From a virus: a stretch of 44,459 nt of DNA. Shown one piece after another: positions 5,213 to 40,158 of this stretch. Every line of letters begins with the position of its first letter. Positions within the stretch are counted from its first letter, which is position 1. Below the pieces are notes generated by a model. The model saw only the letters and a list, made by a program, of their open reading frames with translations, did no database searches and was not told the DNA's origin. The stretch spans positions 1 through 44,459 of IMG/VR virus record IMGVR_UViG_3300002461_000167. One strand, 5' to 3'. The translations under genes were made by a program, and so were the position numbers.

Positions 5213-6852
5213 TCCTCGATTACAACCCACACACCGACAGATATTTTGCGCGAGTGCCGCGAAGTCAAAGCGGACTCGTGCAAAAACTTATGCGCGAGCA
5301 CGGCTTCGATTTATCGTTGACGGCTTCCACCGCGAGTGATGCCGTGCTGTTCACGAATGAGCCGTGCGCGGCGGTGACATTCTTTGACCAAGGCACCGAG
5401 CGTGCCAAGGCGAACCTATCGGCGCTGAATACCGTCATCGAAGCATCGCGAGCGCCGACGAGCACGCGCAAAATTGACGTGCCGGCCGACAAAGAGCTGT
5501 GGCCTTTCCAGGTCGCGTCACTCGACTATGCATTGACGCACGCGCCGCACGGCTGCCTTATCGCGGACCAACCCGGCCTTGGCAAGACGCCGCAAGCCAT
5601 CGCGTTCGCCAATGAGATTCAAGCCCAGCGCGTTCTATGCATTGTCCCGGCGAACGTCCGGCTCCAATGGGCCGAGAAGATTTATGAGTGGTCGACGCTG
5701 CCGTGGCCGATCAAGATCCACACCGTGATGAATTCGCGCAATGGCGTCAATCCATATGCCAATTGGATTATCGTTTCGTATGAGCTTGCGGCCAACCCCG
5801 CGATTGCCTCGGTGCTGGCCGAGCTGGACTTTGACTTGCTCATTCTGGACGAAGCCCATTACCTGAAAACAATCCACGCGCGCCGCACGCGGGCTGTATT
5901 CGGTGGTGGCGAAGATCGCGAGTTCCCGCCGCTGATCCGTAGCTGCGAAGCCACGTTGGCGCTCACCGGCACGCCGTTGCCGAACCGGCCGCGCGAAGCC
6001 TACACCTTGGCGCGCGGGCTGTGCCACGATTCCATTGACTGGATGTCCGAAGATTCCTTTTCGGCTCGGTTCAACCCGTCCATGATGATTGACACCGCAT
6101 CGGGCAAGAAGCGCATCGACGAACGCTCGGGGCGCACGGCCGAGCTACAGAACCGGCTCCGTGGTAATTTCATGACACGCCATATGAAGCGCGAAGTCAT
6201 GACACAGCTTAAATATCCGATATACGATCTAATCTACATTGACGAGACGGCCGCCATTCGCGCCGCGCTGAAGGCTGAAAAGCTCGCCGACATAGACCCC
6301 GAGGAAATGGAAGGCGCCAACATGGCCATTGATGGCCAAGTGTCTATTATCCGGCGGATGATGGGCGAAGCGCTGGCACCGGGCGTGGCCGAGTACGTCA
6401 AGATGCTGCTAGAAGGCGGCGAAGAAAAGATAGTCGTGATGGGCTGGCACATATCCGCGCTGTCCATCATCGAAGCCAAGCTAGAGCAATACGGCGTGGT
6501 GCGCCTGGACGGACGCGTTGCCGGCGCAACTGCCAAGCGCGAGCGTGTAAATGAGTTCCGGCGCAATCCGGCTAAGCGGGTGTTCCTCGGGAACATGCTC
6601 GCGGCTGGCGTGGGCACCGATGGCCTGCAAGACGTGTGCAATCACGTAGTCATTTCCGAGGCATCATGGACGCCCGGCGACAATCAGCAAGCCATCGACC
6701 GCCTTGACCGTGGCGGCCAGAAGCACCAAGTGCAGGCGGACATATGCGTGGCGCGGGGTTCATTTGCCGAGCGTATTTGTGCGACCTTCCTACGCAAAGG
6801 AAAGGTAATTGACAAGGCGCTAGACGCCGTGCATAACATTGATGATTGGTGA
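5209..6852 (+). CDS. SNF2-family (DEAD/DEAH-box) helicase / DNA translocase
   Basis: Motif I DQPGLGKT, motif II LILDEAHYLK, motif III LTGTPLPN, motif VI QAIDRLDRGGQ. Start taken at GTG 5209, coupled to the upstream stop. The track ORF begins at 5137. Confidence 0.85.
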   Translation: MILDYNPHTDRYFARVPRSQSGLVQKLMREHGFDLSLTASTASDAVLFTNEPCAAVTFFDQGTERAKANLSALNTVIEASRAPTSTRKIDVPADKELWPFQVASLDYALTHAPHGCLIADQPGLGKTPQAIAFANEIQAQRVLCIVPANVRLQWAEKIYEWSTLPWPIKIHTVMNSRNGVNPYANWIIVSYELAANPAIASVLAELDFDLLILDEAHYLKTIHARRTRAVFGGGEDREFPPLIRSCEATLALTGTPLPNRPREAYTLARGLCHDSIDWMSEDSFSARFNPSMMIDTASGKKRIDERSGRTAELQNRLRGNFMTRHMKREVMTQLKYPIYDLIYIDETAAIRAALKAEKLADIDPEEMEGANMAIDGQVSIIRRMMGEALAPGVAEYVKMLLEGGEEKIVVMGWHISALSIIEAKLEQYGVVRLDGRVAGATAKRERVNEFRRNPAKRVFLGNMLAAGVGTDGLQDVCNHVVISEASWTPGDNQQAIDRLDRGGQKHQVQADICVARGSFAERICATFLRKGKVIDKALDAVHNIDDW

Positions 6853-7056
6853 AAGCCGATACTGTCCGGCGGCTAGGTTGGCCGACGCACGGGCCTGCAA
6901 AGAACATCCTGGCCGGGGTGAGAGTAGCAGGGAACCCGGAGAAGTGGGGTTATTCTAGACGAACCCTTCCGGGGCACCACCTCGGCGGACAGACTTGACA
7001 ATCACATCGGCCGGCGCTACGGCTACCACAACTGCAACAGGCACAGGAAAATTCAC

Positions 7057-7605
7057 ATGGGTTCGATTACAGGTGGCCGCGTCGTGTTCTCGCGCACGGT
7101 CAAAACCGGCGACTTCGAGAATATGAAAGCCGAAGTTGAACTGACATTCACGGCCGGCGACGAAGACAAATACGCCGAGCTTCTTGACTTGGCCAGCCGA
7201 CAGGCGAAGACCAAGGCGCACGAAATGCTCGGACTGTCCGCCGGCTCCGTGAAGGGGTCCAAGGCCACCGCTGCACCGGAAGCCGAGGAAGCGCCCGCCA
7301 AACCTGCCAAGAAGCCCGGCCGCCCGAAGGCTGCCAAGGCCGAGCCCGAGGAAGCGGACGAAGACGGCGTGTTGCCGGAAGACGAAGCCGAGGAAGCGGA
7401 AGCCGAACCGTCCGTGAGCGACGAAGTGCTGATTGCCAAGATCAGCGCGCACGCCAAGGCCACCGGCAAGAAGGCCGATATCAAGAAGCTCATTGGCGAG
7501 CATTCGAAGACCGGCCAAGCGGCGGGCATCGCCCCGGCGAAGCGCGAAGCATTCCTTGCCGCGCTGAAAAAGATCAAGAAGGGCGACGACGAAGACGGGT
7601 ATTGA
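7057..7605 (+). CDS. Hypothetical acidic/lysine-rich protein with an AT-hook-like segment (KKPGRPKAAK) and an acidic C-terminal tail ending DDEDGY.
   Basis: AGGAAA Shine-Dalgarno sequence 7 nt upstream. The GRP core flanked by K/P residues is at about 7300-7338. Low-complexity A/E/K/P linker. Confidence 0.6.
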   Translation: MGSITGGRVVFSRTVKTGDFENMKAEVELTFTAGDEDKYAELLDLASRQAKTKAHEMLGLSAGSVKGSKATAAPEAEEAPAKPAKKPGRPKAAKAEPEEADEDGVLPEDEAEEAEAEPSVSDEVLIAKISAHAKATGKKADIKKLIGEHSKTGQAAGIAPAKREAFLAALKKIKKGDDEDGY

Positions 7606-7707
7606 TCCCGCGCCTTTCTAGGTGTCCGGTCCCGTGCGGACTTAAGCGCACGGCGGAAGGGTGAGCTACGACGTTGCCCACCGACTACGGCTTTCATTCT
7701 AAGTAGG

Positions 7708-7716
7708 ATTTACACG
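7708..7716 (+). promoter_or_regulatory. Copy of the over-represented 9-mer ATTTACACG, ending 1 nt before the start codon of the HTH gene 7718..7999. Candidate operator or translation-control site.
   Basis: Sequence taggATTTACACGcATGgcc. It is the same word as the half-site of the palindromes at 39883-39898 and 40143-40158. Confidence 0.4.
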
Positions 7717-7717
7717 C

Positions 7718-7999
7718 ATGGCCAAGAAAGTAAAGAAGCCGGTGCGCCCCGGTTCGGTGAAGTTCACCGCCGAGAAGCGCACCAAGGCTATTGGACTGAT
7801 GAAAGCCGGCAATGAGATTCCGGCAATCGCCAAGGTGCTGAAGCTCCACCCACAGACGCTTTACCGGGCGTTCCCCGGCGGCGCTCGGGTTGTGCGCGGT
7901 GATGCACCCTACGCGAAGCGCAAGAAGGCCAAGAAGGTTGCGGCGCCCGTCCGCGCGCCCGCCAAGAAGCCCGCCGCCAAGAAGCGCGCAGCGTGGTGA
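7718..7999 (+). CDS. Helix-turn-helix DNA-binding protein with a lysine/alanine/proline-rich, histone-H1-like C-terminal tail.
   Basis: The HTH-like segment is EIPAIAKVLKLHPQTLYRAF. The tail is KRKKAKKVAAPVRAPAKKPAAKKRAAW. Confidence 0.6.
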   Translation: MAKKVKKPVRPGSVKFTAEKRTKAIGLMKAGNEIPAIAKVLKLHPQTLYRAFPGGARVVRGDAPYAKRKKAKKVAAPVRAPAKKPAAKKRAAW

Positions 8000-8003
8000 C
8001 GAG

Positions 8004-9152
8004 ATGACCGAACCGGTGCACAGCAAGCTCGGTGCCAGTGGTGCGTCCCGATGGATGGCGTGCCCCGGTTCGGTCGCTTTGACCGCTGCCTTGGGAAAGG
8101 GCGGCGACGACGAGTCCGAATTCGCCGCTGAAGGAACCGCCGCCCATGAAGTTGCCGCTGAATGTCTCCGCACTGTATCGGATGCATGGGAACACGTTGG
8201 ACGGACCTTCCATAACCATGTCCTCGATTATGACATGGCTGACCACGTGCAAACGTACATCAATGAATGCCGGCGCATATCTGTTGGCGCTGAAACGTGG
8301 ATTGAACACCGCATCACCTCCAATCTACATGCCGATTTGTTTGGCACGATGGACTTTGCCGCTCTAAGCGAATACAGCCTGAAGCTGCGGGACTTGAAGT
8401 TCGGCGCCGGGCTGACGGTCGAAGTGGAAGACAATGCACAGTTGAAGTATTACGCGTTCGGGATGCTACAGACCCCGGACCTATTCGACGGCGTGCGCTA
8501 TGTCGAGATTGGCATTGTGCAGCCGCGCAAGGATCATCCCAACGGCCCGGTGCGCGTGGTCACCCACACCGCCGAGGAAATCCACGAGTGGGGACACGGC
8601 GTTCTCATTCCGATGATGAAACGCACCGAGCGCGACCACACGTTGGACCCCGGCGAACATTGCCGCTTCTGTCCGGCGCGGTTCGTGTGCCCAGCGCTGC
8701 AAGGTATATTCCAGTACGCCAGCCAGACGCCGCCAACCTCGGTGCGCGAGCTGTCCGACACCATGCTTGGCCTTGCGTACCGCGCGACGGGGCCGGCCCG
8801 GATCTTTATCAACGCTATCGAGACGGAAGCGTTGTCGCGTTTAAATAACGGTAAGAAGGTGCCCGGCCTGAAGCTGGTAGACAAGCGCGCCGACCGGGTT
8901 TACCGTGACGGTGCAACCGACGTGCTGGTCAAGGCGTTCGGCAAGAAGGCATATACCGAGCCGGCCTTGCGCACGCCTGCGCAAATGGAAAAGCTCGGGC
9001 CGGAAGCCGTGGCACTGGTCAAGAAATGGGCGTACACGCCGAAGACGGGACAGACGGTCGCGAGCGACGAAGACCGCCGCGCCACCGTCACCCGCCAAAG
9101 CGGCAAAGAAGTGTGGAAGGGTGTAGTCAATGGTACAGACGACGAGTGGTGA
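8004..9152 (+). CDS. PD-(D/E)XK nuclease with a Cas4-like C-terminal cysteine cluster (recalled as DUF2800-type phage exonuclease).
   Basis: The N-terminus KLGASGASRWMACPGS matches my recollection of DUF2800. Cysteine cluster is CRFCPARFVCP. It sits next to an SSB-like gene and DNA polymerase, as in known phage replication modules. Start taken at ATG 8004. Confidence 0.7.
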   Translation: MTEPVHSKLGASGASRWMACPGSVALTAALGKGGDDESEFAAEGTAAHEVAAECLRTVSDAWEHVGRTFHNHVLDYDMADHVQTYINECRRISVGAETWIEHRITSNLHADLFGTMDFAALSEYSLKLRDLKFGAGLTVEVEDNAQLKYYAFGMLQTPDLFDGVRYVEIGIVQPRKDHPNGPVRVVTHTAEEIHEWGHGVLIPMMKRTERDHTLDPGEHCRFCPARFVCPALQGIFQYASQTPPTSVRELSDTMLGLAYRATGPARIFINAIETEALSRLNNGKKVPGLKLVDKRADRVYRDGATDVLVKAFGKKAYTEPALRTPAQMEKLGPEAVALVKKWAYTPKTGQTVASDEDRRATVTRQSGKEVWKGVVNGTDDEW

Positions 9153-9624
9153 TGATGGTTCCGATTGGCCGACACAGGCGCAGGTTCCGAACTTTTACGG
9201 CGCAGTTGGGCAAAATCAAGTTCGGTACACGCCGCCCTATGCTTTCTATCTCTACGATTCGCGCCAAGTCATCAAATCCATATCGCTCCACGAACTTGTT
9301 GTGGAATCGGCGGACGCTGTATTTAAGGCCGTGCTGGCAGCCTACGGCGAAGCGGAAATCGACCGGCTGCATTTAAATCGTTTCTTCGGAAGCCTGAACG
9401 TGCGCGCCATGCGCGGCGGGCGTTCCTACTCAATGCACAGTTGGGGTATCGCGCTGGACTTCGACGCGAACCGGAATCAACTGCGATGGGACCACACACG
9501 CGCCGCCTTTGCTCATGCTGATTATGAGAAGTGGTGGCAGTGTTGGGAAGCCGAGGGATGGACTTCCCTCGGTCGTGAACGGGATTACGACTGGATGCAT
9601 GTTCAGGCGGCGTATCTCGGTTAG
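9130..9624 (+). CDS. Peptidase M15 (VanY / L-alanyl-D-glutamate peptidase type) cell-wall hydrolase; probable endolysin.
   Basis: Zinc-ligand pattern SMHSWGIALDFD ... DYDWMHVQ (SxHxxGxAxD ... DxxH). Confidence 0.75.
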   Translation: MVQTTSGDDGSDWPTQAQVPNFYGAVGQNQVRYTPPYAFYLYDSRQVIKSISLHELVVESADAVFKAVLAAYGEAEIDRLHLNRFFGSLNVRAMRGGRSYSMHSWGIALDFDANRNQLRWDHTRAAFAHADYEKWWQCWEAEGWTSLGRERDYDWMHVQAAYLG

Positions 9625-10743: not shown

Positions 10744-12698
10744 CGCGGCGCTACGTCCTAATCGACTTTGAGACACACAGCCTTGTGGATCTTCCCGAGG
10801 CTGGAGCGTGGCGCTACGCCGAAGACTGGTCAACCGTCATTCTGTGCCTCGGGTACGCCCTGCGCGGCGCCAACCGAGCCGAGCTATGGGTGCCGGGCGA
10901 CGACACATCCGAGTTGATGGCGCTCGCCGAAGACCCCGACGTTATTTTCATCGCCTTTAATGCCGGCTTCGAAAAAGCTATCTGGCGTCATCAAATGGTG
11001 CCGCTCGGGTTCCCGGACATCCCGAATAACCGTTGGCACGATATCCAAGCGGTGGCAGCCAAGAAGGGTTTGCCGTTGGACCTGGACACGTGCTTGCGTG
11101 TGCTCGGGCTACCGCCAAAGGATGCCGAAGGTTCGAAGCTCATTAAGCAAGTGAGCAATCAACGCGTGCCGCTCACCGCCGAGGTGCGGGAGAGAATTTA
11201 CACGTACTGCAAGACGGACATTGCGGTGGAGTGGGCGCTACACGAGCGCATCGGTTGGCTCACCAAAGAAGACCGCTTGTCGTGGCTGATCAATCAGGAC
11301 ATGAACGAACGCGGGTTGCGCCTCGACGCCAGCTATATCCGCGCCTGCCAAGTCATCGTCGATGGCGCCACGCCGGACCTACTCGCCCGGTTCCGGGCCA
11401 TCACCGGGTTGAAGCCGACACAGGCAATCAAGCTCAGAACGTGGTGTCACGAGAACGGCGCCCCGTTGCCGAACCTGTCCGCCGAGACGGTGGAGCCGGC
11501 CCTTGCCGATGGCGAGCTACCCGACAACGTGCATGAAGCCCTAGAGCTGCGGTCCCTTGTGGCGTCCGCCAGCGTCAAGAAGCTCGGGCGGATGCTCACG
11601 GTCATGCAAGAGGACGAACGGGCGCGTGGGGCCTGTCAGTGGCACGGCACGGTGCCGGGGCGCAGCGCGGGGCGGCTATTCCAGCCGTACAACTTCCCTC
11701 GGGGCACCACGAAGGTAGGCGGCGAGCCGCCCAAGCCGTGGGTGACGCGCGCCGCTATCGAGACGGGTGACCACGAGTTGGTGGGGCAACTAATCGGCCC
11801 GCCGGTCAAAACTGTCGTCTCGGGCCTGCGCCACTGCATCGTCGCCGAGCGCGGCAAGATCCTCGTGTCCGGGGACTATGCCGGTATCCAAGCGCGGGTG
11901 GTGCTCGCGCTCGCCGGCCAGCACGACAAGACCGAGGTGATGGCCGCCGGCCGTGACGTGTACATTGATATGGCCGAGACAATCTACAAGCGGAAGATCG
12001 ACAAGAAGCGCGACCCCTACGAACGGCAGATAGGAAAGTTCTCGGTGCTCGGTCTTGGCTTCGGCATGGGGCCACCGAAATTTAAACTGAAGTACGCCAA
12101 GAAAGATCCGCTCGACTTCTGCCAAACTGTGGTATCGGCTTACCGCAAAGAGTGGGCGCCCAAGGTGCCATTTCTGTGGTATGGGCTGGAGGATGCCGCC
12201 GCGCTCGCGGTGCACAATCCGGGCAAGTCCTACGAAGCGCACCACAAAACCCACGGCTTCAATATACACTATCAAATGGAAGACGTGTGGTTGACGTGCC
12301 GCTTGCCATCGGGCCGGAAGCTGTACTACTTTGGCGCTACGCCGGAATGGAGTAAAGTGCCTTGGGATGAAACCGAGGTGAAGCGTGCATTTAAATACCG
12401 GGCTGTGAAGTACGGCCACGTGCAAACCATCTTCCCGTTCGGCGGCTCACTGTGCGAAAACGTGGTGATGGGAATTGAAGTTGACATTCACCGCAAGGGT
12501 ATGCACAATCTACACAAGGCGCGGTGGCCGCTTGTGTTGGAGGTCTACGATGAAATCGTGGCCGAGATGCCAGACGGTGACCGCAAGCGCATGGAACACG
12601 AGTTCGAAGCGCTGATGTTAGATCAAGATCCGTGGGTGGCGGCAATGCGCATCCCGGTGGCGGTTGAATGTTGGTCCGGTGAGGAATACAGGAAATGA
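10740..12698 (+). CDS. Family A (Pol I-like) DNA polymerase with a 3'-5' exonuclease domain.
   Basis: Exo I LIDFETHS. Motif A-like SGDYAGIQARV, motif B-like RQIGKFSVLGLGFGMG, motif C-like VYDEIVAE. GTG 10740 overlaps the upstream stop (aTGTGA). Confidence 0.85.
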   Translation: MTRRYVLIDFETHSLVDLPEAGAWRYAEDWSTVILCLGYALRGANRAELWVPGDDTSELMALAEDPDVIFIAFNAGFEKAIWRHQMVPLGFPDIPNNRWHDIQAVAAKKGLPLDLDTCLRVLGLPPKDAEGSKLIKQVSNQRVPLTAEVRERIYTYCKTDIAVEWALHERIGWLTKEDRLSWLINQDMNERGLRLDASYIRACQVIVDGATPDLLARFRAITGLKPTQAIKLRTWCHENGAPLPNLSAETVEPALADGELPDNVHEALELRSLVASASVKKLGRMLTVMQEDERARGACQWHGTVPGRSAGRLFQPYNFPRGTTKVGGEPPKPWVTRAAIETGDHELVGQLIGPPVKTVVSGLRHCIVAERGKILVSGDYAGIQARVVLALAGQHDKTEVMAAGRDVYIDMAETIYKRKIDKKRDPYERQIGKFSVLGLGFGMGPPKFKLKYAKKDPLDFCQTVVSAYRKEWAPKVPFLWYGLEDAAALAVHNPGKSYEAHHKTHGFNIHYQMEDVWLTCRLPSGRKLYYFGATPEWSKVPWDETEVKRAFKYRAVKYGHVQTIFPFGGSLCENVVMGIEVDIHRKGMHNLHKARWPLVLEVYDEIVAEMPDGDRKRMEHEFEALMLDQDPWVAAMRIPVAVECWSGEEYRK

Positions 12699-13512: not shown

Positions 13513-13829
13513 TGGTTCACAGTCGTAACAAAGGTAAGCGCGGCGAGCTGGAGCTTGCCGCGTTTCTGCGCGCCCACGGGTTCGAAGCCCGGCGCGGCCA
13601 GCAATTCAAGGGCGGGGGTGACAGTCCCGACGTGGTGTGCGATGATCTGCCTATGCACATCGAATGCAAGCGCGTCGAGGCTGGCAACATTTACACGTGG
13701 CTTGACCAAGCAACGCGCGATGCGCCCGCCGGCAAAACCCCGGTGGTGATGCACAAGAAGAACGGCCGGCCGTGGGTCGCCGTTCTCACCCTAGAAGACC
13801 TGTTAGAGTTGATTGGTGGAGGTTGGTAG
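13512..13829 (+). CDS. PD-(D/E)XK-fold endonuclease, Holliday-junction-resolvase-like.
   Basis: NKGKRGELELAAFL...SPDVVCDD...IECKR gives the D...E-x-K signature. Size about 105 aa. Confidence 0.6.
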   Translation: MVHSRNKGKRGELELAAFLRAHGFEARRGQQFKGGGDSPDVVCDDLPMHIECKRVEAGNIYTWLDQATRDAPAGKTPVVMHKKNGRPWVAVLTLEDLLELIGGGW

Positions 13830-15063: not shown

Positions 15064-15236
15064 CCCTTCTATTGCCCCGGATAGTAGCCGAAGAACTTGG
15101 TGTGAGACTCACCGAGTCGCGCCGCTATCCGGGGTTCTACGTGGTCCAGGTTGATTTGCGGCCGGTGAGCCACGGTGGCAAGGTCGACCAATGGGCACGA
15201 TTTAAACTAGAGGTCGCCAAGAAGGAAGATTGGTAA
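15042..15236 (+). CDS. Hypothetical small protein. An alternative ATG at 15060 is coupled to the upstream stop.
   Basis: ORF bridging the phosphoesterase and sulfotransferase genes. The start is ambiguous (15042 or 15060). Confidence 0.4.
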   Translation: MGELEQMTLLLPRIVAEELGVRLTESRRYPGFYVVQVDLRPVSHGGKVDQWARFKLEVAKKEDW

Positions 15237-17458: not shown

Positions 17459-17666
17459 TGCGCTGCCTCACGAACGCGTCCATTCCGAACGCGGTCCCTA
17501 TGTAGAGCCACAGTGTCATTGTGGCGATGCTGTACGGGCCTTCCATCGCTTTGATGGTATTGGAGTCCAGATACCAGAATACACGCACGGTCAAGATGAC
17601 CCAAAAGATCATCGCGATCAGGGCCACTTCCCGTTTAAATGTCTTCCGACTTACCGGGGTGGCCAC
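17253..17666 (-). CDS. Holin-like two-TM membrane protein. Only about the first 70 codons (17666 to about 17455) look coding (see finding).
   Basis: TM1 VALIAMIFWVILTVRVFW and TM2 IATMTLWLYIGTAFGM. GTG start with AAGGCGGA upstream. No in-frame stop occurs until 17253, although third-position G/C bias is lost after about 17455. Confidence 0.4.
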   Translation of the reverse strand: MATPVSRKTFKREVALIAMIFWVILTVRVFWYLDSNTIKAMEGPYSIATMTLWLYIGTAFGMDAFVRQRNDFMVPPGRYNQLAGPRRYGGRPGGGYPSEQSSSPYGLSPGSDPSIELSDSPAWRPSGTGEVGSRTGT

Positions 17667-22405: not shown

Positions 22406-24040
22406 TTAGCGTCCTGTTGGTACGGGGTTCGGCGGGGCAACGGTCGTGCCGGGTACACGTACCCATCGCATGGATTGCGTGGCGGGGTCAAACTGCTGAT
22501 AGTTCCAATAGCCGCTACGGTCTTTGCGCGCGTTCGGAATCGGCGGCGGGTCCAGCTTGTCGGGCGTTGCCGCCGGCTTGCTCAGTGCCTTGGTGCGCGC
22601 GGTCAACTGCTGTTCAAGCGTCTGTGTGTACTGGCTCAGTGACGCCGGGCTGCCGAGGAAGTCCGGTTTCGCCGGGTTCACAAGGTCCAGTGGATTCTTG
22701 CCTTCCTTCTTGTACTGTTTAAATTTAGCCATGGCGTCATTGTAAAAGAAGTACGCGCGCTGTTCATCCTCGGGCGTGCTCACGCCAAAGCTGTTCGGCT
22801 TCGAAATGGACTTCTTGTAGGTGCGCAGGAATTCGTTAAACCGCGCTTGGGTGCCGTCGCCGTCCGGGTCATTTACACGGTCTTTGAGGAACTTCCAATC
22901 TTCCTTGCTGATTTCCTCACGGACGAACGCTTCATCCAACGGGCGCGTGTCGCTAATGCGCGTGGGGTCGCCTTCGTCCGCAATGATGCGTTCCATAAGC
23001 TTGGCCGTGTTTGCACGCGACACCACCGCCGCCGTGGCCGGCTTCATTTCGCGCATAAGCACGCGGCCAAGCATCCGCTTTGAATCGGGCGTCAACGTCT
23101 GGTCGTCGCGGATGCCCTTCAGCGTCACGCTCGGGTCGCCGGACAGGATTTTCAATTCCATGTCCATCTGCACTTCGTCGGACGCCTTCTTGGCGGCGCG
23201 GTCCTGCTGATGCTGCGCCCACTGGATGTCTTGGCGCCGCTCGCGAATGACAGACTTCGCTTCCTTCTCAAACTTCGTGATGTCATCGCCACTGACATAC
23301 CGGGAATACTTCGGGTCGCGGGCCATCCGCAAGCCGGCTTCCGGGTTCAATTCGATGGCCGCGTTGACCGCCGTTTGAACGATCTTCTCTAGGCCGCCTT
23401 GGGCTGCTGTAAATCGTGCCTTCTGCGCCTCGACGCCACGAAGGTTCGGGCTAGAGTCGGTGAGGCTTTCGACCTGCGCGCGGAACGACTCCATAACCGT
23501 ATCGAGCGAGCTTGGATCTTGCTTGACGGTCGACGAAAACGCATTGAGCGATTCGACAAGGTTCGTTTTCAGCGCGATGCCCGCGAGCGTGGACATGTCG
23601 GCCGTGGTCTTCGTGAACATGTGTTCACGCAAGGATTGCCCGCGCGCCTGGATGAAATTCCGGCCGCGCTCCGTGAGGAAGCCGCCGGTTAGCTTTTCAA
23701 GCGCCGGTTCCATAACTTCGGACGTGAAGCGCTGCGCAACGCCGGAATCGTTCGGGTCCGCCTTCTGCGCCGTGTCATCCCATGCCTTGGATAGATCGCG
23801 CTGGACTTCGGCATACGCCTTGCCGCCGGAACTGATTTCCTTGGCCGACACAATGTCATCCATGACACTGCCGACCATACGGATGGCACTGCTATATTCT
23901 TGCCCGAGCTGGCGCGTGGACGAAGCGGCGCGGTCATAGAAGCCACCAACCGTGCGCGCCTGTTGGGCGAGCGCATCGGTGGCCCGTTCGTTCGGCTGTA
24001 GCCCCATACGCTCGGGGCTATAGATGGCGATATTCGGCAT
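22406..24040 (-). CDS. Internal virion protein (544 aa, in the T7 gp15 position).
   Basis: Helical, Q/A/K-rich. Tightly packed (1-3 nt gaps) between the gp14-like and gp16-like genes. Confidence 0.55.
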   Translation of the reverse strand: MPNIAIYSPERMGLQPNERATDALAQQARTVGGFYDRAASSTRQLGQEYSSAIRMVGSVMDDIVSAKEISSGGKAYAEVQRDLSKAWDDTAQKADPNDSGVAQRFTSEVMEPALEKLTGGFLTERGRNFIQARGQSLREHMFTKTTADMSTLAGIALKTNLVESLNAFSSTVKQDPSSLDTVMESFRAQVESLTDSSPNLRGVEAQKARFTAAQGGLEKIVQTAVNAAIELNPEAGLRMARDPKYSRYVSGDDITKFEKEAKSVIRERRQDIQWAQHQQDRAAKKASDEVQMDMELKILSGDPSVTLKGIRDDQTLTPDSKRMLGRVLMREMKPATAAVVSRANTAKLMERIIADEGDPTRISDTRPLDEAFVREEISKEDWKFLKDRVNDPDGDGTQARFNEFLRTYKKSISKPNSFGVSTPEDEQRAYFFYNDAMAKFKQYKKEGKNPLDLVNPAKPDFLGSPASLSQYTQTLEQQLTARTKALSKPAATPDKLDPPPIPNARKDRSGYWNYQQFDPATQSMRWVRVPGTTVAPPNPVPTGR

Positions 24041-27500: not shown

Positions 27501-27830
27501 GGCCGCTGAAATCAACAGGACGGTGCGCGCGTCTTTGGTGGGCATCAGCCCCGAGCCATCCCAATACCGCATATTGGAATCGGTGAATTCCAATAGCAGC
27601 GGCGCGCGGCCGGACAAACCGAAACGCTGCATCTTGGCCGGCAGACCTTGGTACGTGTAGCCACGGAACGCCGTACCGAACCGGCGCAGCCACGCGCCTT
27701 CATCGGTCGGGATGCCGTTTAAACTCACGTTCATTGCTGTGGCATACGCCGGCATGTCGAAACGGCCTTGACTGGCCTTCGACCACTCGCCGCCAGCAAA
27801 TGACCATTGCGCGTTGGATGCCAATGCCAT
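24546..27830 (-). CDS. Tail tubular protein B / nozzle-like protein (1094 aa) with inserted carbohydrate-binding-like modules.
   Basis: N-terminus WSFAGGEWSKASQGRFDMPAYATAMNVSLNGIPTDEGAWLRRFGT resembles podovirus nozzle proteins. Position after the tube A-like gene. Two CBM5/12-like repeats (aa 266-307 and 336-376) and an AAFDGN discoidin-like segment. Confidence 0.55.
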   Translation of the reverse strand: MALASNAQWSFAGGEWSKASQGRFDMPAYATAMNVSLNGIPTDEGAWLRRFGTAFRGYTYQGLPAKMQRFGLSGRAPLLLEFTDSNMRYWDGSGLMPTKDARTVLLISAADPGVFTTDVAHNWATNDEVQFDSLTPALQRRVFRIIVTGAATFTAVDSITGVSLSGVGVPALIAVRRVQRTTTPYAAGAWSTLQSVQAEKESVLLNGQRPNVVTAADDPTDPDGLPLFTFNPIILKDGPYLDLVEKNSQLNTAGLQGIVSVIIDFAEWDAAKSYSIGDYATYTSVSYRSLVDLNVNNQPNTNPADWVVADASELFGPSGLQDTDVGRSIRLHSEPADWDVATAYAAKARVKFAGTYWAALQATTGDEPGADIKNWILSVDGAHRWTWGRITGLGSLIPNDIVGATDIGNYTEDGGLAAAFDGNLSQPKADSAGASLTFPFMTRFSTSAYLQRFIGRNYTGASPQTIKQVTLYPPSDDGFIFTLANGGYRERNSVDPFTCNLRLNLRGKVGTAPSSSSDGTVLGTVEFTRSWASGNLAAQLLTDKEITFGFPTSPISITSTDQTTAFDHIWVEAEVQYKVNDVRSSPSAFIFFTTKLYIAEMRLFSATSGAGAGFDVEIIGKPLLNNDPIREWRLGVYADSTSWPRCGTYHEGRLWLAGAVKNRFDASRSNKIFDFAPTEEDGTVAPSNGISYVLNSTEVNDIYWMEPDVRGIICGTKTAEWLIAPGSAGAIAPANIKATPGTRAACANIPPARTEHTVVFTHLSKGSVREIFADVNASVFSTTNISERARDITKIGVEQIVYMAEPTPLIWVRRTDGSIAGCTYKRNVLSVAREPEVMGWHRHLHGTGRRVSDMAVGSLSASDTEALTLISAGADDLYAVEQLIPHDRTLPWLLDYAANPSSRELGVSSAIFYGFDHLEGEVVTVYAGGLDCGDHTVVDGAVTVPYGNGVSGGTGGGKFTAAFLDPPDPEIEDPEVVIGFNFLTQGQRLRPMSQQDTGTRAGLFALGKVRRAHGVAMLVEYTKGLSIGTDFDNLRPANFVTKGERPLGVLDFFSGIHRDTLDDTFSYDSMVCWQISRPYPLTLMAVGQYLRTQD

Positions 27831-27831: not shown

Positions 27832-28950
27832 TCAGACCCTTATGGAAATGAAGTCATCTTCCGGCGCTTCGACCGGACCTTTTTCGATGCCGTTGACGGT
27901 ACGCGCATCCGATATGAATTGCGAATACTGCGCGGCGATACTCTGCACATCGGCGTTGGACTGCGACAGGCGCCCGGTGACTGCCAAGGCCAAACGTGCG
28001 GCCAAGCCTTCACAGAATAGATCATCGAACATCGTGACATTCTGGATGTCGGCCGCGAACCGGAACACGATGGCTTGCGGGCTGTACGATGTCAGATAGT
28101 CGCCTTCTAGGTTCCAATCGCGCGACTGGTAGTTGCTCGGGGCGCCAAGGGGCGAGCGCACGCCGGCCTTCGGCTCTTGGTCCGCAACGCGCACGTAGTT
28201 GGCCGGAAGCCGGAAGACGTGCCGGTTGTCGTGCGTGCTCGGGTACACAAGCCGCTTGTCGATAAGATCCGCGACAAGCTCCACCCACTTTTCCGAACCC
28301 GTGCCGCGCAGCGACGTGGTGCGCCATTCGCCCGGCGAGCCGGCCGGCGCGTTGTTCAGGTTGAAATCAACAATCGACTGGTAGACCACCGCCGCGACCA
28401 CCACAAGGTCTTCTTTGCGGTACTCCACCGTGGCGTCGTAGGCGTTCGGCGTGGCCGGGTTGTCTTCGTTGCCACCAATCAATGACTGGTAGACCTTGAA
28501 GGTTCCGTCGCCGGGTGTCGTGTAAATCACATCACCGGCATAGTACGCCTCACCGTCCACCCACTTGGGAATTGCCAAGGGGCCGGTGTACAATTCCCAA
28601 TAGTAGACGGTGCCGGGATTGTTGTTCAAGTTCTGTGCGCGAACCGAAATCCACATGATGCCTTGTTCGTCGCTCACGATGGCCCCTTGCGGGTAGATCG
28701 TAGAGCTTGACCACATGGCCGGCGCAATCTCGCGCGTCGTCTCGGTGATGGCACGGAGCACCGCCCACTTGATCGCGAAGCGCCAGACGTTGCGGCGCAG
28801 CTCGGCGCGGCGCACCTTGCCATACGCAAAGCCGCACTCGGTGGCTTGAACGCTATCTTCCTCGAAGCCAATGGTGGGATCTATGCGGCGCTCGCCACAG
28901 TGCTGAAGCGCGCGGTTCGCAATGTCGACGGGGTTACTATACTCGGCCAT
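27832..28950 (-). CDS. Tail tubular protein A / adaptor-like protein (T7 gp11-like N-terminus) carrying three CBM5/12-like repeats.
   Basis: N-terminus IANRALQHCGERRIDP...ATECGFAYGKVRRAELRRNVWRFAI follows the gp11 pattern (NDILASIGEPPV...RRIL...GWTFN). GAGGTG Shine-Dalgarno sequence. Repeats at aa 78-210. Confidence 0.55.
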   Translation of the reverse strand: MAEYSNPVDIANRALQHCGERRIDPTIGFEEDSVQATECGFAYGKVRRAELRRNVWRFAIKWAVLRAITETTREIAPAMWSSSTIYPQGAIVSDEQGIMWISVRAQNLNNNPGTVYYWELYTGPLAIPKWVDGEAYYAGDVIYTTPGDGTFKVYQSLIGGNEDNPATPNAYDATVEYRKEDLVVVAAVVYQSIVDFNLNNAPAGSPGEWRTTSLRGTGSEKWVELVADLIDKRLVYPSTHDNRHVFRLPANYVRVADQEPKAGVRSPLGAPSNYQSRDWNLEGDYLTSYSPQAIVFRFAADIQNVTMFDDLFCEGLAARLALAVTGRLSQSNADVQSIAAQYSQFISDARTVNGIEKGPVEAPEDDFISIRV

Positions 28951-30732: not shown

Positions 30733-30749
30733 GGGGCTGTACCTCGGTG

Positions 30750-31739: not shown

Positions 31740-31829
31740 GGGGTGACTCCTTGTGGGGGTTCATCCTACGGCGTAATCCAGACTTACAACCACGCATACG
31801 CGGGCCAGTCACCGGGCACCATTTCCATA

Positions 31830-31858: not shown

Positions 31859-31866
31859 CCCCCCGT

Positions 31867-32142
31867 TTAAAACTCGTCTTTGGCTGCCTCGGCGGCGGCC
31901 AAATCAGCGGCCACAAGCTCGCGGCGGCGCTCGGCAATCTTGGGGTTCGCAAGATCCGAAGGCTGCACCGCGCCCGCAATGGGGAGTAGGCAGCAACCGG
32001 AACCCTCGCGCGTGTAAATGCAGCCCGTGCCGGCTTTGAGTTTGACGATGCCCGTACCCGGCGCCGGTTGTCCGGTGCGTGGGTGCTTCTGCATTTCCGT
32101 CTCGGTCCATTCCGGCGGCTTACAATCTTTGTGACAGGCCAT
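31867..32142 (-). CDS. Small cysteine-containing protein (91 aa) between the scaffold and capsid genes.
   Basis: ATG 32142 has GAGGAA 6 nt upstream. Sequence begins MACHKDCKPPEWTE...GTGCIYTREGSGCC. Confidence 0.5.
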   Translation of the reverse strand: MACHKDCKPPEWTETEMQKHPRTGQPAPGTGIVKLKAGTGCIYTREGSGCCLLPIAGAVQPSDLANPKIAERRRELVAADLAAAEAAKDEF

Positions 32143-32185
32143 GCGTGTTTCCTCGAATGAGTGATGGTGGATGCGGGGCGGCGAC

Positions 32186-33355: not shown

Positions 33356-33593
33356 GAACGTACCAATCCGACGCGAGCACGTCCGCGTTGCTGATGTGCC
33401 ATTCGCGGTATTCGCTGAACGGGTTGTCCGGCGGGCCGCTGGCCACAATGAGTGCACCGACTTCGGGCCGGTTCGGAAGACCGTGCGGAAGGATTGCCAC
33501 CCTTTCCGACTTATCCCAAGCGCGGCGGCCAACGTGCTTTGACTGCCACATGGCGAGAAGGGCGCCACCGAACCCGAAGTCCTTGCTGTACAT
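33348..33593 (-). CDS. DUF2829-like protein (the family that includes the Thoeris anti-defence protein Tad2).
   Basis: N-terminus FGGALLAMWQSKHVGRRAW and C-terminus EWHISNADVLASDWYV match the remembered DUF2829 pattern (F.eAl.alk.Gk.v.R.gW ... W..sq.DlLa.DW.i). Length 81 aa. Confidence 0.55.
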   Translation of the reverse strand: MYSKDFGFGGALLAMWQSKHVGRRAWDKSERVAILPHGLPNRPEVGALIVASGPPDNPFSEYREWHISNADVLASDWYVHE

Positions 33594-33600
33594 TTAAACG

Positions 33601-33978: not shown

Positions 33979-34057
33979 GTTGATTCCCCTTGGTCAGAAA
34001 ATACCTGAAGTCCGACCAATATACGTCATCGCAATGAACATTGCAAGCGCTTCGCGT

Positions 34058-34297: not shown

Positions 34298-35979
34298 TGT
34301 CCCTCGCCTAGTTTAACGGCCCTATCCGTCTCGGCCTTGGCCATTGCAGCCTGTGCCGGCATCGCCTGTACCTGTGCAGCCGCCGCCTGTGCCTGCGCGC
34401 GATTCTTGCGCTTGGCCAAAATCTGATCTTCCGACGCCATCCAGCTTTCCGGTACAGACTGAATTTCAGCAATCTGCGGAATAGCTATATCAAAGTTGAA
34501 TGGATCAAGCAAGCTCGGGTCTTGCGAAATGTTCACAAGGCCACTCGCCATCTCCACAGTGCGCATGAAACCGCCAGCCTCTTGCGCGCGTGCGGCCTTG
34601 GCCAATGGGCTTGTGTACCGCACCTGATACGCGCCCTGTGCTTCGATCAGCTCGGGCGGCATCTCGGGCAACAATCCCTGTTGGCTAAGCAAGTCAAGCT
34701 CGCGGCCGATCATCGGGCCGAGGTATTCATTCGACTGATTGCCCATCGTGGGCGCCAGCAAGATGCCCTTTTCGTTGGTGCGCTCGATCACTTCCGTGGC
34801 CGTCATCGAAGGCGACTCGGTAAGGATCTGGAATAGCGTGACCAGGAACGCGTCATTGATAAGCGCGCGTTCCTCGGCCATCATCTCTTTGGTGATCTGG
34901 ATTTCACCCGTGGGCAACACGCCGACGAGTGGGTGACCCTGCGAAGACCAACCGCCCTTGTTCATGGAGCCGGGGCGCATGGACATGTCCACAATGCCAT
35001 CGTCTGCCGTGAGCAATACAGGGTCCGCCGCACGGTGCCCTTGCTTCAGGAACACCTTCTTTTCGGCATTCAAGGTTTTGAGCGCCGGCAACACGAACGT
35101 GGCCGGGCCGCGTCCATAGACTTCCTCGGCCGATTGCTCATAGCGCGAGCCGGCCAGCGGGAACGTGACGTAACCGCTTTCGTCAATCAACCGCTGGCAG
35201 TCCACCGAAATGTAATAGCTGGCGAACTGCATCGACCGTGAATCCCACCGCTCGGGGTCATGGTCGGGGCGCAGCTTCACGCGGTGGATGAATTCGAATA
35301 GCTGTGGGCTGTTGCGCGCGGCGGCTTCGCGCACCTTCTGCGGCAACTGTTCTTCTTTCCACATCGTCAAGGCTTGGCGCGCGACCATGCGCATGAAGCG
35401 TGTAAATCCAACCACGACGCCTTGGTGGTCTTCGTCAAGGTAGATCTGGCCAAGCGGTACATTCTTGTAGCGCAGCCCCGGCGCCCGAGCCGGCTTGTCG
35501 ACGAACATGCACCCGGTGCCGTAGGCGCCCAGGTGTTTGTACACGCCTTGGTTCTGGCCGGCGAAACCGGCAATCGGCGAGTACCGATATTTAAACAGGG
35601 CCTTGGTGGCGGCTTGGAACCACAGGCGCACGCGACGGATGCGCATAAGGTAGTCGTCGTCGGCGGTCAATTCGTGCCACTGCATATTGCGCGGCGTCAT
35701 CATGGAATCGGAAATGGCGCCAAACCGGCTAAGGCCGATCATGCCAGTAGAGTCGATTTGGTGCTCGGTCTTCTTTTCGCCGGGGTGGTTATAGCTGCCG
35801 TATGTAAACGTATTGCGCATGGCCGGCCAAATCAGCGCCGCCGTTTCATCCCACTGCGTTTCAAAGTTCGTGCGCCAACTGCGTTGCTCGGCGAACTCGG
35901 CGAGACACGTGGACACAATGACCTGATCGCGCATTGACTGTGGCGGGTCGGGCATGATGATCGGCGCGGCCATGTTCAT
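34294..35979 (-). CDS. Portal (head-to-tail connector) protein, T7 gp8-like.
   Basis: 561 aa, downstream of the terminase genes. The N-terminal pattern RSWRTNFETQWDETAALIWP...IDSTGMIGLSRFGAISDSMMTP is like podovirus connector proteins. GGAG Shine-Dalgarno sequence. Confidence 0.75.
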   Translation of the reverse strand: MNMAAPIIMPDPPQSMRDQVIVSTCLAEFAEQRSWRTNFETQWDETAALIWPAMRNTFTYGSYNHPGEKKTEHQIDSTGMIGLSRFGAISDSMMTPRNMQWHELTADDDYLMRIRRVRLWFQAATKALFKYRYSPIAGFAGQNQGVYKHLGAYGTGCMFVDKPARAPGLRYKNVPLGQIYLDEDHQGVVVGFTRFMRMVARQALTMWKEEQLPQKVREAAARNSPQLFEFIHRVKLRPDHDPERWDSRSMQFASYYISVDCQRLIDESGYVTFPLAGSRYEQSAEEVYGRGPATFVLPALKTLNAEKKVFLKQGHRAADPVLLTADDGIVDMSMRPGSMNKGGWSSQGHPLVGVLPTGEIQITKEMMAEERALINDAFLVTLFQILTESPSMTATEVIERTNEKGILLAPTMGNQSNEYLGPMIGRELDLLSQQGLLPEMPPELIEAQGAYQVRYTSPLAKAARAQEAGGFMRTVEMASGLVNISQDPSLLDPFNFDIAIPQIAEIQSVPESWMASEDQILAKRKNRAQAQAAAAQVQAMPAQAAMAKAETDRAVKLGEGQ

Positions 35980-36251
35980 TCGTAGTCTCCATCGTGTTCA
36001 TCGAGACGCGGGGCGCGCTCTATCCGTTTGCCGGCGTTGCAGTGCCACGGGTGGATGCCGGATGGTTGCGTGTAAACGATCTTGTCTTCATCGGTGCGTT
36101 TAAACGGCTCACAGACCTTGATCAGTTTTTGGTCGCGGCTGCATTCCTTGCACAAGCCGGGGCCGCCGCACCGCACCTTGACGCCATCGGGCCGCGCCCA
36201 CACGTGACCGTGGCCGGCGTTCGTGCCGTACCGCTGCAACCGGTTAGTCAT
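35976..36251 (-). CDS. Hypothetical Cys-rich small protein (91 aa)
   Basis: Overlapping start and stop with both neighbours. Contains CGGPGLCKEC...C...HC. Confidence 0.45.
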   Translation of the reverse strand: MTNRLQRYGTNAGHGHVWARPDGVKVRCGGPGLCKECSRDQKLIKVCEPFKRTDEDKIVYTQPSGIHPWHCNAGKRIERAPRLDEHDGDYE

Positions 36252-36743: not shown

Positions 36744-36752
36744 AGCGCCCGG

Positions 36753-38844: not shown

Positions 38845-39405
38845 TTGGTCACCTCGGCCCCTAATGTAGCACGGCATTCCAGTTTTTTGGATCCAAATTT
38901 TTTGTGGTTTATCAAGGGGTTACCCGATGTATATTGTGTAAATTTTCCAAAACGCGCGAAAAAGCTCCTTTCATGGCAAATAATGGCGGGGCGCTCTCGG
39001 GCGGCCCCACCCCCGCCGGCACCCCGGTCTTTTACATCGTTCAGTTGTATATGCGGCATACTATATGCGGTGGATTCAATGAGGCCATGACACTAGATGT
39101 GGTATGCTTCCATTCGCATAACATACATTATGGAATGTGTATCGCACCACATGCTAATGCGAATGATTAGCAACTGGCACAGTGCAAGGTGTGCGTGTGG
39201 CCAGTTGCCTGGATAATCGAGGGCTATTGCCAGTTGGCTCGATACCGTGCTATCAACCCGCTATGCCGTGGTAATATTAGAGAATAGTCCCGGACTCTCT
39301 ATCATATCACGGTAGATATATGTTCTTATACAATATAATATATATATAGTAATATATTGTGTAAGACAGGCTAGTGTCTAATACTGACTTGGAAAGGATA
39401 AACTA
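38845..39405. promoter_or_regulatory. A/T-rich divergent control region between terS and the first early gene. Candidate origin, pac site or promoter hub with several repeat families.
   Basis: No convincing ORF. TATATGCGG occurs twice (39048, 39062). Inverted repeat CATTCGCAT/ATGCGAATG (39111-19 / 39157-65). GCCAGTTG occurs three times (39171-78 inverted, 39200-07, 39229-36). Inverted repeat ACAATATA/TATATTGT (39330-37 / 39353-60) flanks an (AT)n run. Confidence 0.6.
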
Positions 39406-39864
39406 ATGCAACGTACATCCGTCAATGCCACGGCTAAGCAAACTATCCTCGATATGATTGACGCATCACCCGAGGGCTATATCACTCGCAAGGCTGCCAG
39501 CGACAAGCTCAAATCAATGGGCATCGGCCAAGCCTATCAATTGAACAATGCCATCGTCCAGCTATCGCTATTCGCCAAGGGTGGCGCGCTGATGCGTGGC
39601 AAGCTAACCCCGCGCAAAGTGAATACACGTTGGGGGCGTGCGCCACGCTCACCTTATGCCGATGTCACATGGTTGGAAGATGTCATCGCAGAAGGTGCAA
39701 CGCTCGGGGCTATCGTCAAGCGTGCCAACGATGACCACGTGACCATTGCACGACTCGTTGCCGCGATGGCTGCCACGGGTGATGATTTCAAGCTGCTATT
39801 GGTCAATGATCCGACCAAAACCGCGCTACCTGGTAAACATCAGGATACGGACGAAACCTGGTAA
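39406..39864 (+). CDS. First early protein (152 aa), possibly winged-helix-like at the N-terminus.
   Basis: GGAAAGGA Shine-Dalgarno sequence 8 nt upstream. Lower G+C than the late genes. Confidence 0.6.
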   Translation: MQRTSVNATAKQTILDMIDASPEGYITRKAASDKLKSMGIGQAYQLNNAIVQLSLFAKGGALMRGKLTPRKVNTRWGRAPRSPYADVTWLEDVIAEGATLGAIVKRANDDHVTIARLVAAMAATGDDFKLLLVNDPTKTALPGKHQDTDETW

Positions 39865-39882
39865 CAATATATTCATGCCTCA

Positions 39883-39898
39883 CGTGTAGATTTACACG
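39883..39898. promoter_or_regulatory. 16-bp near-perfect palindrome CGTGTAGATTTACACG: two inverted ATTTACACG-type half-sites. Candidate operator.
   Basis: 7 of 8 symmetric base pairs. Lies in the 64-nt gap between early genes 1 and 2. Confidence 0.5.
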
Positions 39899-39928
39899 CA
39901 TCGACCATCAAACAAGGGAATACACACC

Positions 39929-40123
39929 ATGCGATATTCTTTCTTCTTGGCTTGTGCCATCATCACGGTGTCGGCACTCGTGCACGCGTCCAATATGGAA
40001 AATCAGCTAACCATCGCAGACCGTGCGTGCGTCGGTGCTATCATCCAGCTAGACATTGAGCACGAGGCACGAGCCAAAGCGATTGCGCGCGAGCTATACA
40101 AAAGGCTTGTGCCAACAATCTAG
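39929..40123 (+). CDS. Small secreted or membrane early protein (64 aa).
   Basis: AAGGGAA Shine-Dalgarno sequence. N-terminus MRYSFFLACAIITVSALVHA is signal-peptide-like. Confidence 0.55.
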   Translation: MRYSFFLACAIITVSALVHASNMENQLTIADRACVGAIIQLDIEHEARAKAIARELYKRLVPTI

Positions 40124-40142
40124 TTGCGAATCATTCGAGTCA

Positions 40143-40158
40143 CGTGTAAATCTACACT
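40143..40158. promoter_or_regulatory. Second palindrome of the same family, CGTGTAAATCTACACT, in the opposite polarity.
   Basis: 6 of 8 symmetric base pairs. Contains an exact CGTGTAAAT (= ATTTACACG on the minus strand). Lies in the gap between early genes 2 and 3. Confidence 0.45.

Follow-up and report, generated by a model that had tools for sequence, protein, structure and literature searches.

The window analysed here is the whole of IMG/VR virus record IMGVR_UViG_3300002461_000167, 44,459 nucleotides of viral DNA from an activated-carbon metagenome. Our subject is a 9-bp word, ATTTACACG, that recurs along this DNA, and an early gene at 42101-42820 whose SprT-like product may read it. The first 94 nt of the window (1-94) are identical to the last 94 nt (44366-44459); the assembly is therefore circular and complete, with a true length of 44365 bp. 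Across this junction the open reading frame 43851..44459 runs on into 95..880 to form one gene of about 464 aa. The phage has a roughly 44-kb, podovirus-like genome of 60% GC organized as two convergent arms. The replication arm encodes a primase-polymerase (prim-pol)/helicase (3009-4913), an SNF2 helicase, a DUF2800 nuclease, an Enc34-type single-stranded DNA-binding protein (SSB), and PolA. The other arm encodes TerS, TerL, a T7-type portal, the capsid protein, and large tail or ejected proteins. We found no close cultured relative of this phage.

The window holds 14 exact copies of ATTTACACG, 5 on the plus strand and 9 on the minus strand. Dinucleotide-preserving shuffles predict 0.30 copies, and none of 100 such shuffles reaches 14. 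An order-3 Markov model predicts 0.33 and ranks ATTTACACG by far first among all 9-mers (log10 P about -18). When synonymous codons are shuffled within genes (400 shuffles), the mean is 4.4 copies and the maximum 8, a mean that includes the 3 intergenic copies left unshuffled. The degenerate form ATTTAMAC occurs 22 times in genes, compared with 0.47 when codons are permuted within genes. Together these nulls rule out chance or codon usage as the cause of the count. A protein motif is ruled out as well: copies are read in three frames, antisense, and between genes, and ATT-TAC-ACG encodes six of the proteome's eight I-Y-T tripeptides, where codon usage predicts 9% each. Thus, ATTTACACG is real, is kept by selection at the DNA level, and behaves as a recognition word. 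A sequence-only reading of the same DNA had reached much of this by eye. Its coordinates and strands for the 14 copies, its six one-mismatch relatives, and its statements of reading frame are all correct; its low chance expectation (about 0.3) and its dismissal of a protein motif are borne out; and the codon-shuffled and Markov nulls that it proposed as a check fall far short of the observed count. A literature search for the word returned only primers.

Position-by-position counts reveal a wider motif, R-TTTA-M-AC, which favors G at position 9 and disfavors T just ahead of the R. Written R-TTTA-M-AC-(G), it has 35 matches at 33 places in the window, compared with 2.99 expected. It takes in a second word overlooked by the earlier reader, ATTTAAAC, with 12 copies against 0.62 expected. 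Position 6 alone admits a second base (A), positions 1 and 9 show preferences only, and the core TTTA-AC is all-or-none, its one-mismatch variants showing no enrichment. ATTTAAAT, present at 9371, 12389, and 30753 (3 copies, 0.27 expected), may be a further member. The roughly 33 places are dispersed at about one per 1.3 kb, and 26 of the 33 lie inside genes. The 17 copies of ATTTACAC, the word without its ninth base, are spaced more evenly than random (coefficient of variation 0.50, P = 0.002), which is not so in the relative L089 described below; a regular period of 1150/2300 bp is a by-eye impression only. Among 75 sites in four genomes, no partner element or further conserved position was detected at any offset within 45 bp. 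The earlier statement that nothing beyond the 9 bases is conserved is thus correct for solitary sites, and fails for the two early intergenic copies, which form mirror-image 14-bp palindromes, GTGTA-N4-TACAC, that occur nowhere else in the window.

The sites persist in related phages. A close relative (L003, L092), about 95% identical overall, retains every site: only 1 of 192 site positions has changed, a permitted C-to-A substitution, compared with 5.0% of positions in flanks of 60 nt (P = 5.5e-4). Conservation in relatives, the other check that the sequence-only reading had put forward, therefore favors the sites over their flanks, and the sites are under purifying selection. The ATTTACACG copy at 7708 is ATTTAAACG in L092, and the ATTTAAAT copy at 9371 corresponds to ATTTAAAC at L092:8383 (minus strand) by offset (L092 7851 = window 8839); the variants are interchangeable. 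At greater distance, L089 (PolA 64% identical) carries ATTTACAC 17 times against 0.49 expected, 7 on the plus strand and 10 on the minus strand, and L087 (TerL 70% identical) carries TTTACAC 9 times against 0.67. Other loci use sister words: L056 has GTTTACAC 11 times, L097 and L033 have GTTTAAAC at 8 and 6 places (about 0.2 expected each), and L030 has it more weakly, at 3 places against about 0.3. The nearest outgroups, L178 and L180, have no word. Two of seven coding sites in the window lie at exactly the same place in L089; 5 of 8 have an L089 site within 50 nt (0.55 under the null, P = 1e-4), and 10 of 15 have one within 150 nt. These matched sites are often on opposite strands. Approximate place therefore matters and orientation does not, and the word, judged from these comparisons, is read on duplex DNA in either orientation.

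The sites in the window, with the promoter that overlaps one of them, are as follows.

102..109, plus strand: ATTTAAAC
869..876, plus strand: ATTTACAC(a)
4661..4668, plus strand: ATTTAAAC
4727..4734, minus strand: ATTTACAC(c), in the prim-pol gene; inverted L089 site 14 nt off
6544..6552, minus strand: ATTTACACG, antisense (R-V-N) in the SNF2 helicase gene; exact copy kept in L089
7708..7716, plus strand: ATTTACACG, between the Shine-Dalgarno AGGA and the ATG of a helix-turn-helix (HTH) gene
8839..8846, minus strand: ATTTAAAC
9371..9378: ATTTAAAT, possible member
11196..11204, plus strand: ATTTACACG, I-Y-T in the PolA gene; exact copy kept in L089
12080..12087, plus strand: ATTTAAAC
13689..13697, plus strand: ATTTACACG, I-Y-T in a PDDEXK_15 gene
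15200..15207, plus strand: ATTTAAAC, intergenic
17633..17640, minus strand: ATTTAAAC
18302..18310, minus strand: ATTTACACG, I-Y-T in the gene of a 1583-aa LPD38 protein; L089 site 119 nt off
18955..18962, minus strand: ATTTAAAC
20573..20581, minus strand: ATTTACACG, I-Y-T in the gene of the 1583-aa protein
21579..21586, minus strand: GTTTACAC(g)
22717..22724, minus strand: ATTTAAAC
22871..22879, plus strand: ATTTACACG, antisense (R-V-N) in a 544-aa gene; L089 site 36 nt off
25295..25303, minus strand: ATTTACACG, L-H frame in a 1094-aa gene
26245..26253, minus strand: ATTTACACG, F-T-R frame in the 1094-aa gene
26949..26956, minus strand: ATTTAAAC
27717..27724: GTTTAAAC, palindromic member
28519..28527, minus strand: ATTTACACG, I-Y-T in a 372-aa gene
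32011..32019, minus strand: ATTTACACG, I-Y-T in a small gene upstream of the capsid gene
33592..33599, plus strand: ATTTAAAC, at a gene junction
35399..35407, minus strand: ATTTACACG, F-T-R frame in the portal gene
35589..35596, plus strand: ATTTAAAC
36070..36077, minus strand: GTTTACAC(g), upstream of the portal gene; TTTACAC at the matching place in L087 and L088
36098..36105: GTTTAAAC, palindromic member
38936..38943, minus strand: ATTTACAC(a), about 90 nt upstream of TerS
39884..39898, plus strand: palindrome GTGTA-GATT-TACAC(G) with ATTTACACG (39890-39898), early intergenic
40124..40152, plus strand: sigma-70-like promoter TTGCGA-N17-TAAATC, read by eye, its -10 hexamer inside the second palindrome
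40143..40157, minus strand: second palindrome (mirror image) with ATTTACACG (40143-40151), early intergenic
43779..43786, plus strand: ATTTAAAC, intergenic

Several of these sites have counterparts in position as well as in sequence. The site at 7708 is matched in L089 by an inverted copy that overlaps the same start codon, and L087 has ATTTACACG about 55 nt upstream of its own TerS, comparable to the window site at 38936. The palindrome at 39884..39898 lies within a block that is conserved in L003, though its flanks are about 77% identical. The promoter at 40124..40152 keeps its hexamers in L003 (TTGCAA/TAAATC) and its spacer has diverged; a consensus promoter scan of 38700-40700 did not include it among its matches. 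All of the sigma-70-like matches in that scan, four in number and three of them directed toward TerS, fall in an AT-rich stretch with TA repeats (39270-39400) that separates TerS from the first early gene; this stretch could be a divergent control region or an origin. Sites tend toward module boundaries, and three ends of the BLAST-alignable blocks shared with the close relative (about 15236, 38911, and 40179) lie within 25-36 nt of the motif copies at 15200, 38936, and 40151.

Across lineages, all of the words appear to fit a single form, which is our own inference from their letters: two inverted 4-bp halves A-M-A-N, arranged as N-T-K-T / A-M-A-N'. Examples are GTTT+AAAC, CTTT+AAAG, GTGT+ACAC, GTTT+ACAC, ATTT+ACAC, and ATTT+AAAC; this phage uses ATTT+ACAC or ATTT+AAAC, usually followed by G.

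A comparison of 54 window genes with the relatives by tblastn found a single gene common to the word-bearing loci.

42101..42820, plus strand: SprT-like zinc metalloprotease gene, candidate word reader; early gene, 239 aa, PHROG 6361

Its product carries a basic, AKP-rich tail at the N terminus, an HExxH motif (HELIHA), and, at the C terminus, a CxxC...CP zinc ribbon. HELIHA is invariant in a 5-member alignment, and H-E-x-x-H in a 17-member alignment. All 5 homologues match the Pfam SprT-like family PF10263 (best E 8.1e-7) and have a CxxC...C zinc ribbon throughout; the window protein alone scores E 0.018, below the Pfam cut-off. Sequence search found no solved relative.

Among about 180 related loci, homologues occur only in L022, L033, L056, and L007, and each has a word: CTTTAAAG 21 times in L022, GTTTAAAC in L033, GTTTACAC in L056, and the palindrome CGTGTACACG in L007 (5 copies in 6.6 kb). 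By comparison, about 28 syntenic loci with at least 5 kb of sequence upstream of TerL are without the gene, and only L030 among them has a word, the weak one noted above (Fisher P about 9e-4, from a hand count). The core proteins do not discriminate in this way. Similarity among prim-pol, SNF2, DUF2800, SSB, PolA, TerS, TerL, portal, and capsid proteins fails to separate the word-bearing lineages, and gene-family enrichment around PolA and TerL yielded nothing but clade-specific small genes.

The association extends well beyond these relatives. The alignment of five SprT-like proteins retrieved 229 IMG/VR relatives on contigs of 30-100 kb, and the best 80 of the 229 loci were examined, with counts made by hand from tables. 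In this set, 46 loci have at least 6 matches to RTTTAMAC, mostly as GTTTAAAC, and four further loci have 7-28 copies of CTTTAAAG and none or one of RTTTAMAC. Relatives without the SprT-like gene mostly have 0-1 RTTTAMAC matches. Shuffle tests gave 47 observed versus 3.4 expected in L362, 35 versus 2.8 in L319, 18 versus 1.75 in L308, and 28 versus 0.54 in L315. Each locus uses one word type, and a zinc-ribbon residue tracks that type: it is K-H or K-Q in all four CTTTAAAG-type proteins and W (12) or N (1) in 13 others. A site often lies at the SprT-like gene's own start (just upstream in L302) or stop codon (L033). The family itself is large, with 3173 clusters at 50% identity matching at E up to 0.001 and a homologue in 164 cultured-phage records, including phages of Arthrobacter, Microbacterium, Bordetella, Pseudomonas, and E. 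coli. The homologue at 7983-8570 of Dinoroseobacter phage vB_DshS-R5C (L383) carries the GenBank name "transcription elongation protein SprT," which is inherited from E. coli SprT. In L362:6800-11450, an AT-richer, SprT-like-positive locus, GTTTAAAC recurs every 150-400 bp, either in the loops of GC-rich hairpins before T or A runs, which resemble terminators, or at gene starts, either directly (ATG-TTT-AAA-C) or within the first few codons.

Enzymes of the SprT/Spartan type cut proteins in a DNA-dependent manner; these metalloproteases combine a zinc-binding DNA module with a basic region. ArdC of conjugative plasmids, a related metalloprotease, binds DNA and counteracts restriction. The 42101-42820 protein resembles SprT/Spartan (SPRTN), Wss1, and ArdC in its HExxH domain, zinc DNA-binding module, and basic region, and in being early and borne by a mobile element. 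To our knowledge, these enzymes recognize DNA structure (single-stranded DNA or junctions) rather than sequence, and we know of no genome-wide set of cognate sites described for any of them. SprT-like and ArdC-like peptidases have been noted in phages, and the SprT-like ones were proposed to target host proteins (PMC7824862).

We tentatively favor the reading that the words are binding or activation (docking) sites of the SprT-like protein encoded at 42101-42820, a reading that we hold with somewhat less than even confidence. The zinc ribbon and basic tail would dock the putative protease on the words, and docking would concentrate, and possibly activate, it along the phage's own chromosome. 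Tethered in this manner, the protease could cut DNA-bound proteins, such as regulators or proteins of host defence or silencing. A regulatory role may be added by the pair of inverted copies over the early promoter. The sequence-only reading had proposed a binding, modification, or nick site; its choice of a recognition word was right, and its list of candidate proteins omitted 42101-42820.

Several observations weigh against this reading. The gene was picked post hoc among about 50, the available sequence of the word-bearing loci L089, L087, and L097 ends short of the gene's expected place, and in the window itself no site abuts 42101-42820. The CTTTAAAG group represents only about two independent lineages. 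Arthrobacter phage DrSierra (L382), whose homologue is 44% identical, has no TTTAAA in 14.6 kb (28000-42622); it does have TTTACA/TGTAAA hexamers (9 versus 1.23 expected), most of which precede gene starts by 30-40 nt, that of the SprT-like gene among them, and these look like -35 elements rather than the 8-bp word. Dinoroseobacter phage R5C has only 3 TTTAAA (0.22 expected), and a repeat tool found no obvious word in L340, L364, or L311. The factor could also be another gene that travels with the SprT-like gene. As it appears from these loci, the link between gene and word is correlative and not universal.

A broader proposal is possible, and we hold it with less confidence still. The loci could belong to an undescribed, widespread system in which the zinc ribbon of an early SprT-like metalloprotease reads an 8-bp, two-half-site word (GTTTAAAC, CTTTAAAG, ATTTAMAC, GTTTACAC, or GTGTACAC) as landing or activation pads. 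The phage's own DNA would thereby be marked, proteolysis would be aimed at host defence, silencing, or repair proteins on phage DNA, and protein specificity and word would co-evolve by lineage. The co-occurrence of word and gene suggests an undescribed form of phage self-DNA marking, and the link between the word and a SprT-like protease is new so far as the searchable literature goes. Few kinds of dispersed phage-specific word have been described (nick sites, stoperators, and Chi), and what nick sites are for has yet to be explained. Here a word family in uncultivated phages is under measurable selection, and it would be the first such family tied to a concrete, widespread gene. If the link is true, it would provide a function for the common phage "SprT-like protease" and would point to sequence-directed proteolysis on DNA. 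A single 8-mer at 10-50 times expectation would then serve as a simple genomic signature of such systems.

It is useful to contrast docking sites with the localized single-strand interruptions of Pseudomonas phage tf and of LUZ24-, T5-, and phiKMV-like phages. Phage tf is a podophage of about 46 kb with convergent arms, and all 14 of its nicks lie in TACTRTGMC (PMC3517423). The words in the window could likewise be sites of a phage nickase, and the statistical signatures agree: in our own scan the tf word TACTGTGAC occurs 11 times versus 0.24 expected. In both cases the word is short, exact, phage-specific, 30- to 50-fold over-represented, and dispersed in coding DNA; specificity is all-or-none, with no enrichment of one-mismatch core variants; positions are similar among relatives, which differ at one base; and some sites abut start codons. 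Two Logan contigs add an anecdote. Contig L005, from the close relative, ends at its 3' end exactly with the ATTTACACG copy that matches window 32011, and the 3' end of contig L002 is 21 nt past the copy that matches 35399; such ends may have arisen by chance or from a gap in coverage at the sites. However, all described nick systems use one strand, whereas here the 9-mer is split 5:9 and sites invert between relatives. Several sister words are perfect palindromes (GTTTAAAC, CTTTAAAG, and CGTGTACACG), so nicking on both strands would break the duplex. We identified no site-specific nuclease, and nicking leaves the two 14-bp promoter palindromes and the protease-gene link unexplained. We therefore consider a nickase unlikely.

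About equally improbable, in our view, is a second candidate reader, a clade-specific protein whose gene begins just after the site at 7708.

7718..7999, plus strand: HTH protein, second candidate reader; 93 aa, three helices, basic tails

On this reading the protein would bind the early palindromes as operators and regulate from there; at the solitary sites it would serve as a regulator of the whole genome or as an architectural protein, in the manner of stoperators. Its AlphaFold model has an HTH core of three helices (pLDDT about 84 in block means) flanked by basic tails at both termini, which makes the protein a plausible monomer for an asymmetric 9-bp site. A Hin-type DNA-binding domain superposes at 1.1 A, a match that is not significant, and a Foldseek search with the model gave no significant match. 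In IMG/VR, JGI metagenomes, and a 5.8-billion-protein set, the protein occurs only in the window, L092, and L089 lineages, all of which have ATTTACAC. Each of the three has a site next to or over the start codon of the HTH gene, and two palindromic copies lie in the early control region, one of them over the -10 hexamer. Against this, RTTTAMAC is over-represented where no homologue is detectable, as in L097, L033, L030, L056, and many IMG/VR loci, and the start-codon site is one among many regionally conserved sites.

Comparison with the stoperators of Cluster A mycobacteriophages, which are bound by L5 gp71-type monomeric repressors (PMC9283540), is similarly mixed. Both systems have more than 20 asymmetric sites genome-wide, some at an early promoter (here 33 places, two in the early control region), and a monomeric HTH reader is plausible in both. 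Stoperators, however, are 13 bp long and lie in short intergenic gaps of temperate phages in one orientation. Here the sites are 8-9 bp and mostly intragenic (26 of 33 places), and their orientation is free of transcription, as judged from the coding null described below, the reversed sense bias in L089, and the inverted matched sites. The motif also extends to lineages without the HTH gene. We found no integrase, and the proteins scanned matched no integrase or repressor family, gp71 itself not being compared.

Two further readings are very unlikely. In the first, the phage prim-pol/helicase (3009-4913) initiates at the words, which would require the phage to keep an AT-rich 8-mer, recognized by the primase, at the spacing of Okazaki fragments in a genome of 60% GC. 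The first base of the motif is a purine, the spacing is about 1.3-2.6 kb and, for the 17 copies of ATTTACAC, more even than random, all lineages encode a prim-pol, and an 8-nt template word can serve the NrS-1 prim-pol (PMC8718748). However, L178 and L180 share the prim-pol family without any word, and prim-pol similarity does not split word-bearing from word-free lineages. The inversion of matched sites further argues against a strand-specific role, and no known primase requires 8 exact bases.

In the second, which we regard as no likelier, the phage copies a host signal, whether Chi-like, uptake-related, or otherwise genome-wide. From one related phage to another the variants do differ by one or two bases, much as Chi varies with the host species, and words in both orientations would protect a circularly permuted linear genome. 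Even so, an AT-rich 8-mer is unlikely to be an abundant host word at about 60% GC, several forms are palindromic, unlike Chi, and the word family is shared by loci whose base composition differs widely (L362 looks AT-rich). When 185,579 species were scanned for two word copies within 31 nt, the matches listed were all local tandem arrays. Chi, including that of Chi-rich lambdoid phages (PMC12315714), and KOPS are likewise 8-mers over-represented along a genome; they are polar and host-defined, whereas the polarity here equals the codon constraint and is not conserved. HIP1-type palindromes (PMC4390886) and DNA uptake sequences also are octamers, some palindromic, at about one per kb. These are properties of host genomes tied to methyltransferases or competence, whereas the words here are specific to phage lineages and the window's main form is not palindromic.

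The sequence-only reading had noted a sense-strand bias of the sites, on what would also be the leading strand if replication starts in the A/T-rich region, and had raised Chi/KOPS-like and RNA-level signals among its possibilities. In window genes, ATTTAMAC is 17:5 sense to antisense (77%), or 19:5 with the two GTTTACAC sites. Codon permutation as a null already gives 72% sense: GTG-TAA, the reading in one antisense frame, includes a stop codon, and another frame needs Cys-Lys. In L089 the balance is reversed, with 6 sense and 11 antisense. The sense bias is thus a coding cost and not a function, and the apparent strand polarity is accounted for by the coding-constraint null. Since the bias equals this null, is reversed in L089, and belongs to sites that often invert when matched, the Chi/KOPS-like, leading-strand, and RNA-level readings are all weakened and the polarity claim loses its support. 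A sense-strand RNA signal (a processing or protein-binding site) or a promoter element, which the 19:5 ratio might have favored, is the least credible reading of all, given that same null, the reversal and inversions, and the lack of a -10-like or other fixed-offset partner within 45 bp at the 75 sites.

The absence of a partner element within 45 bp also excludes promoters with a short upstream box, such as the T4 MotA box plus -10 or the T4 late TATAAATA, which would place a -10 at fixed spacing. A DnaA box (TTWTNCACA) was rejected as well: ATTTACACG fits 7 of its 9 positions, but ATTTAAAC, which is used just as much, departs from the conserved C6, and the sites are scattered instead of clustered at an origin. 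Tandem repeats in L025, L042, L044, and L049 proved to be in-gene repeat arrays instead of words. Relatives around PolA (L094, L133, and L161) have unrelated over-represented and dispersed 8-mers. In this group, TCCAGGTC has 11 dispersed copies, 9 of them on one strand across both arms in a tf-like arrangement, GTGACAGG has 13 copies versus 0.6 expected, and GCAGCTGC occurs at 8 places.

Other features of the genome deserve mention. An 84-nt intergenic repeat precedes several early genes (40888-40971, 41459-41542, and 42024-42107, with related pieces at 40167, 40461, and 41219). It contains two GC-rich inverted repeats (GGCCA..TGGCC and CCTGC..GCAGG) and ends in a strong Shine-Dalgarno block, ACCAAGGGGAA(A)TG. 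This module could function as a promoter, as a terminator, or in processing, and several Logan contigs are interrupted within it. The predicted structure of the first early protein (39406-39864, 152 aa) is unusable (pLDDT 42). A MazZ-like dATP/dGTP diphosphohydrolase domain (PF18909) is encoded at 15956-16519 and also at L092:14494-14835 and L180:14385-14753. In relatives it adjoins DUF1937/DUF4406 genes, and PurZ was not detected in this setting; this combination suggests a pathway for nucleotide-pool manipulation or DNA modification. The 1583-aa protein (17651-22402) has an LPD38 polyvalent-protein domain, and the structural module includes small Bbp19-like and, more weakly, Tad2-like proteins at 33068-33593.

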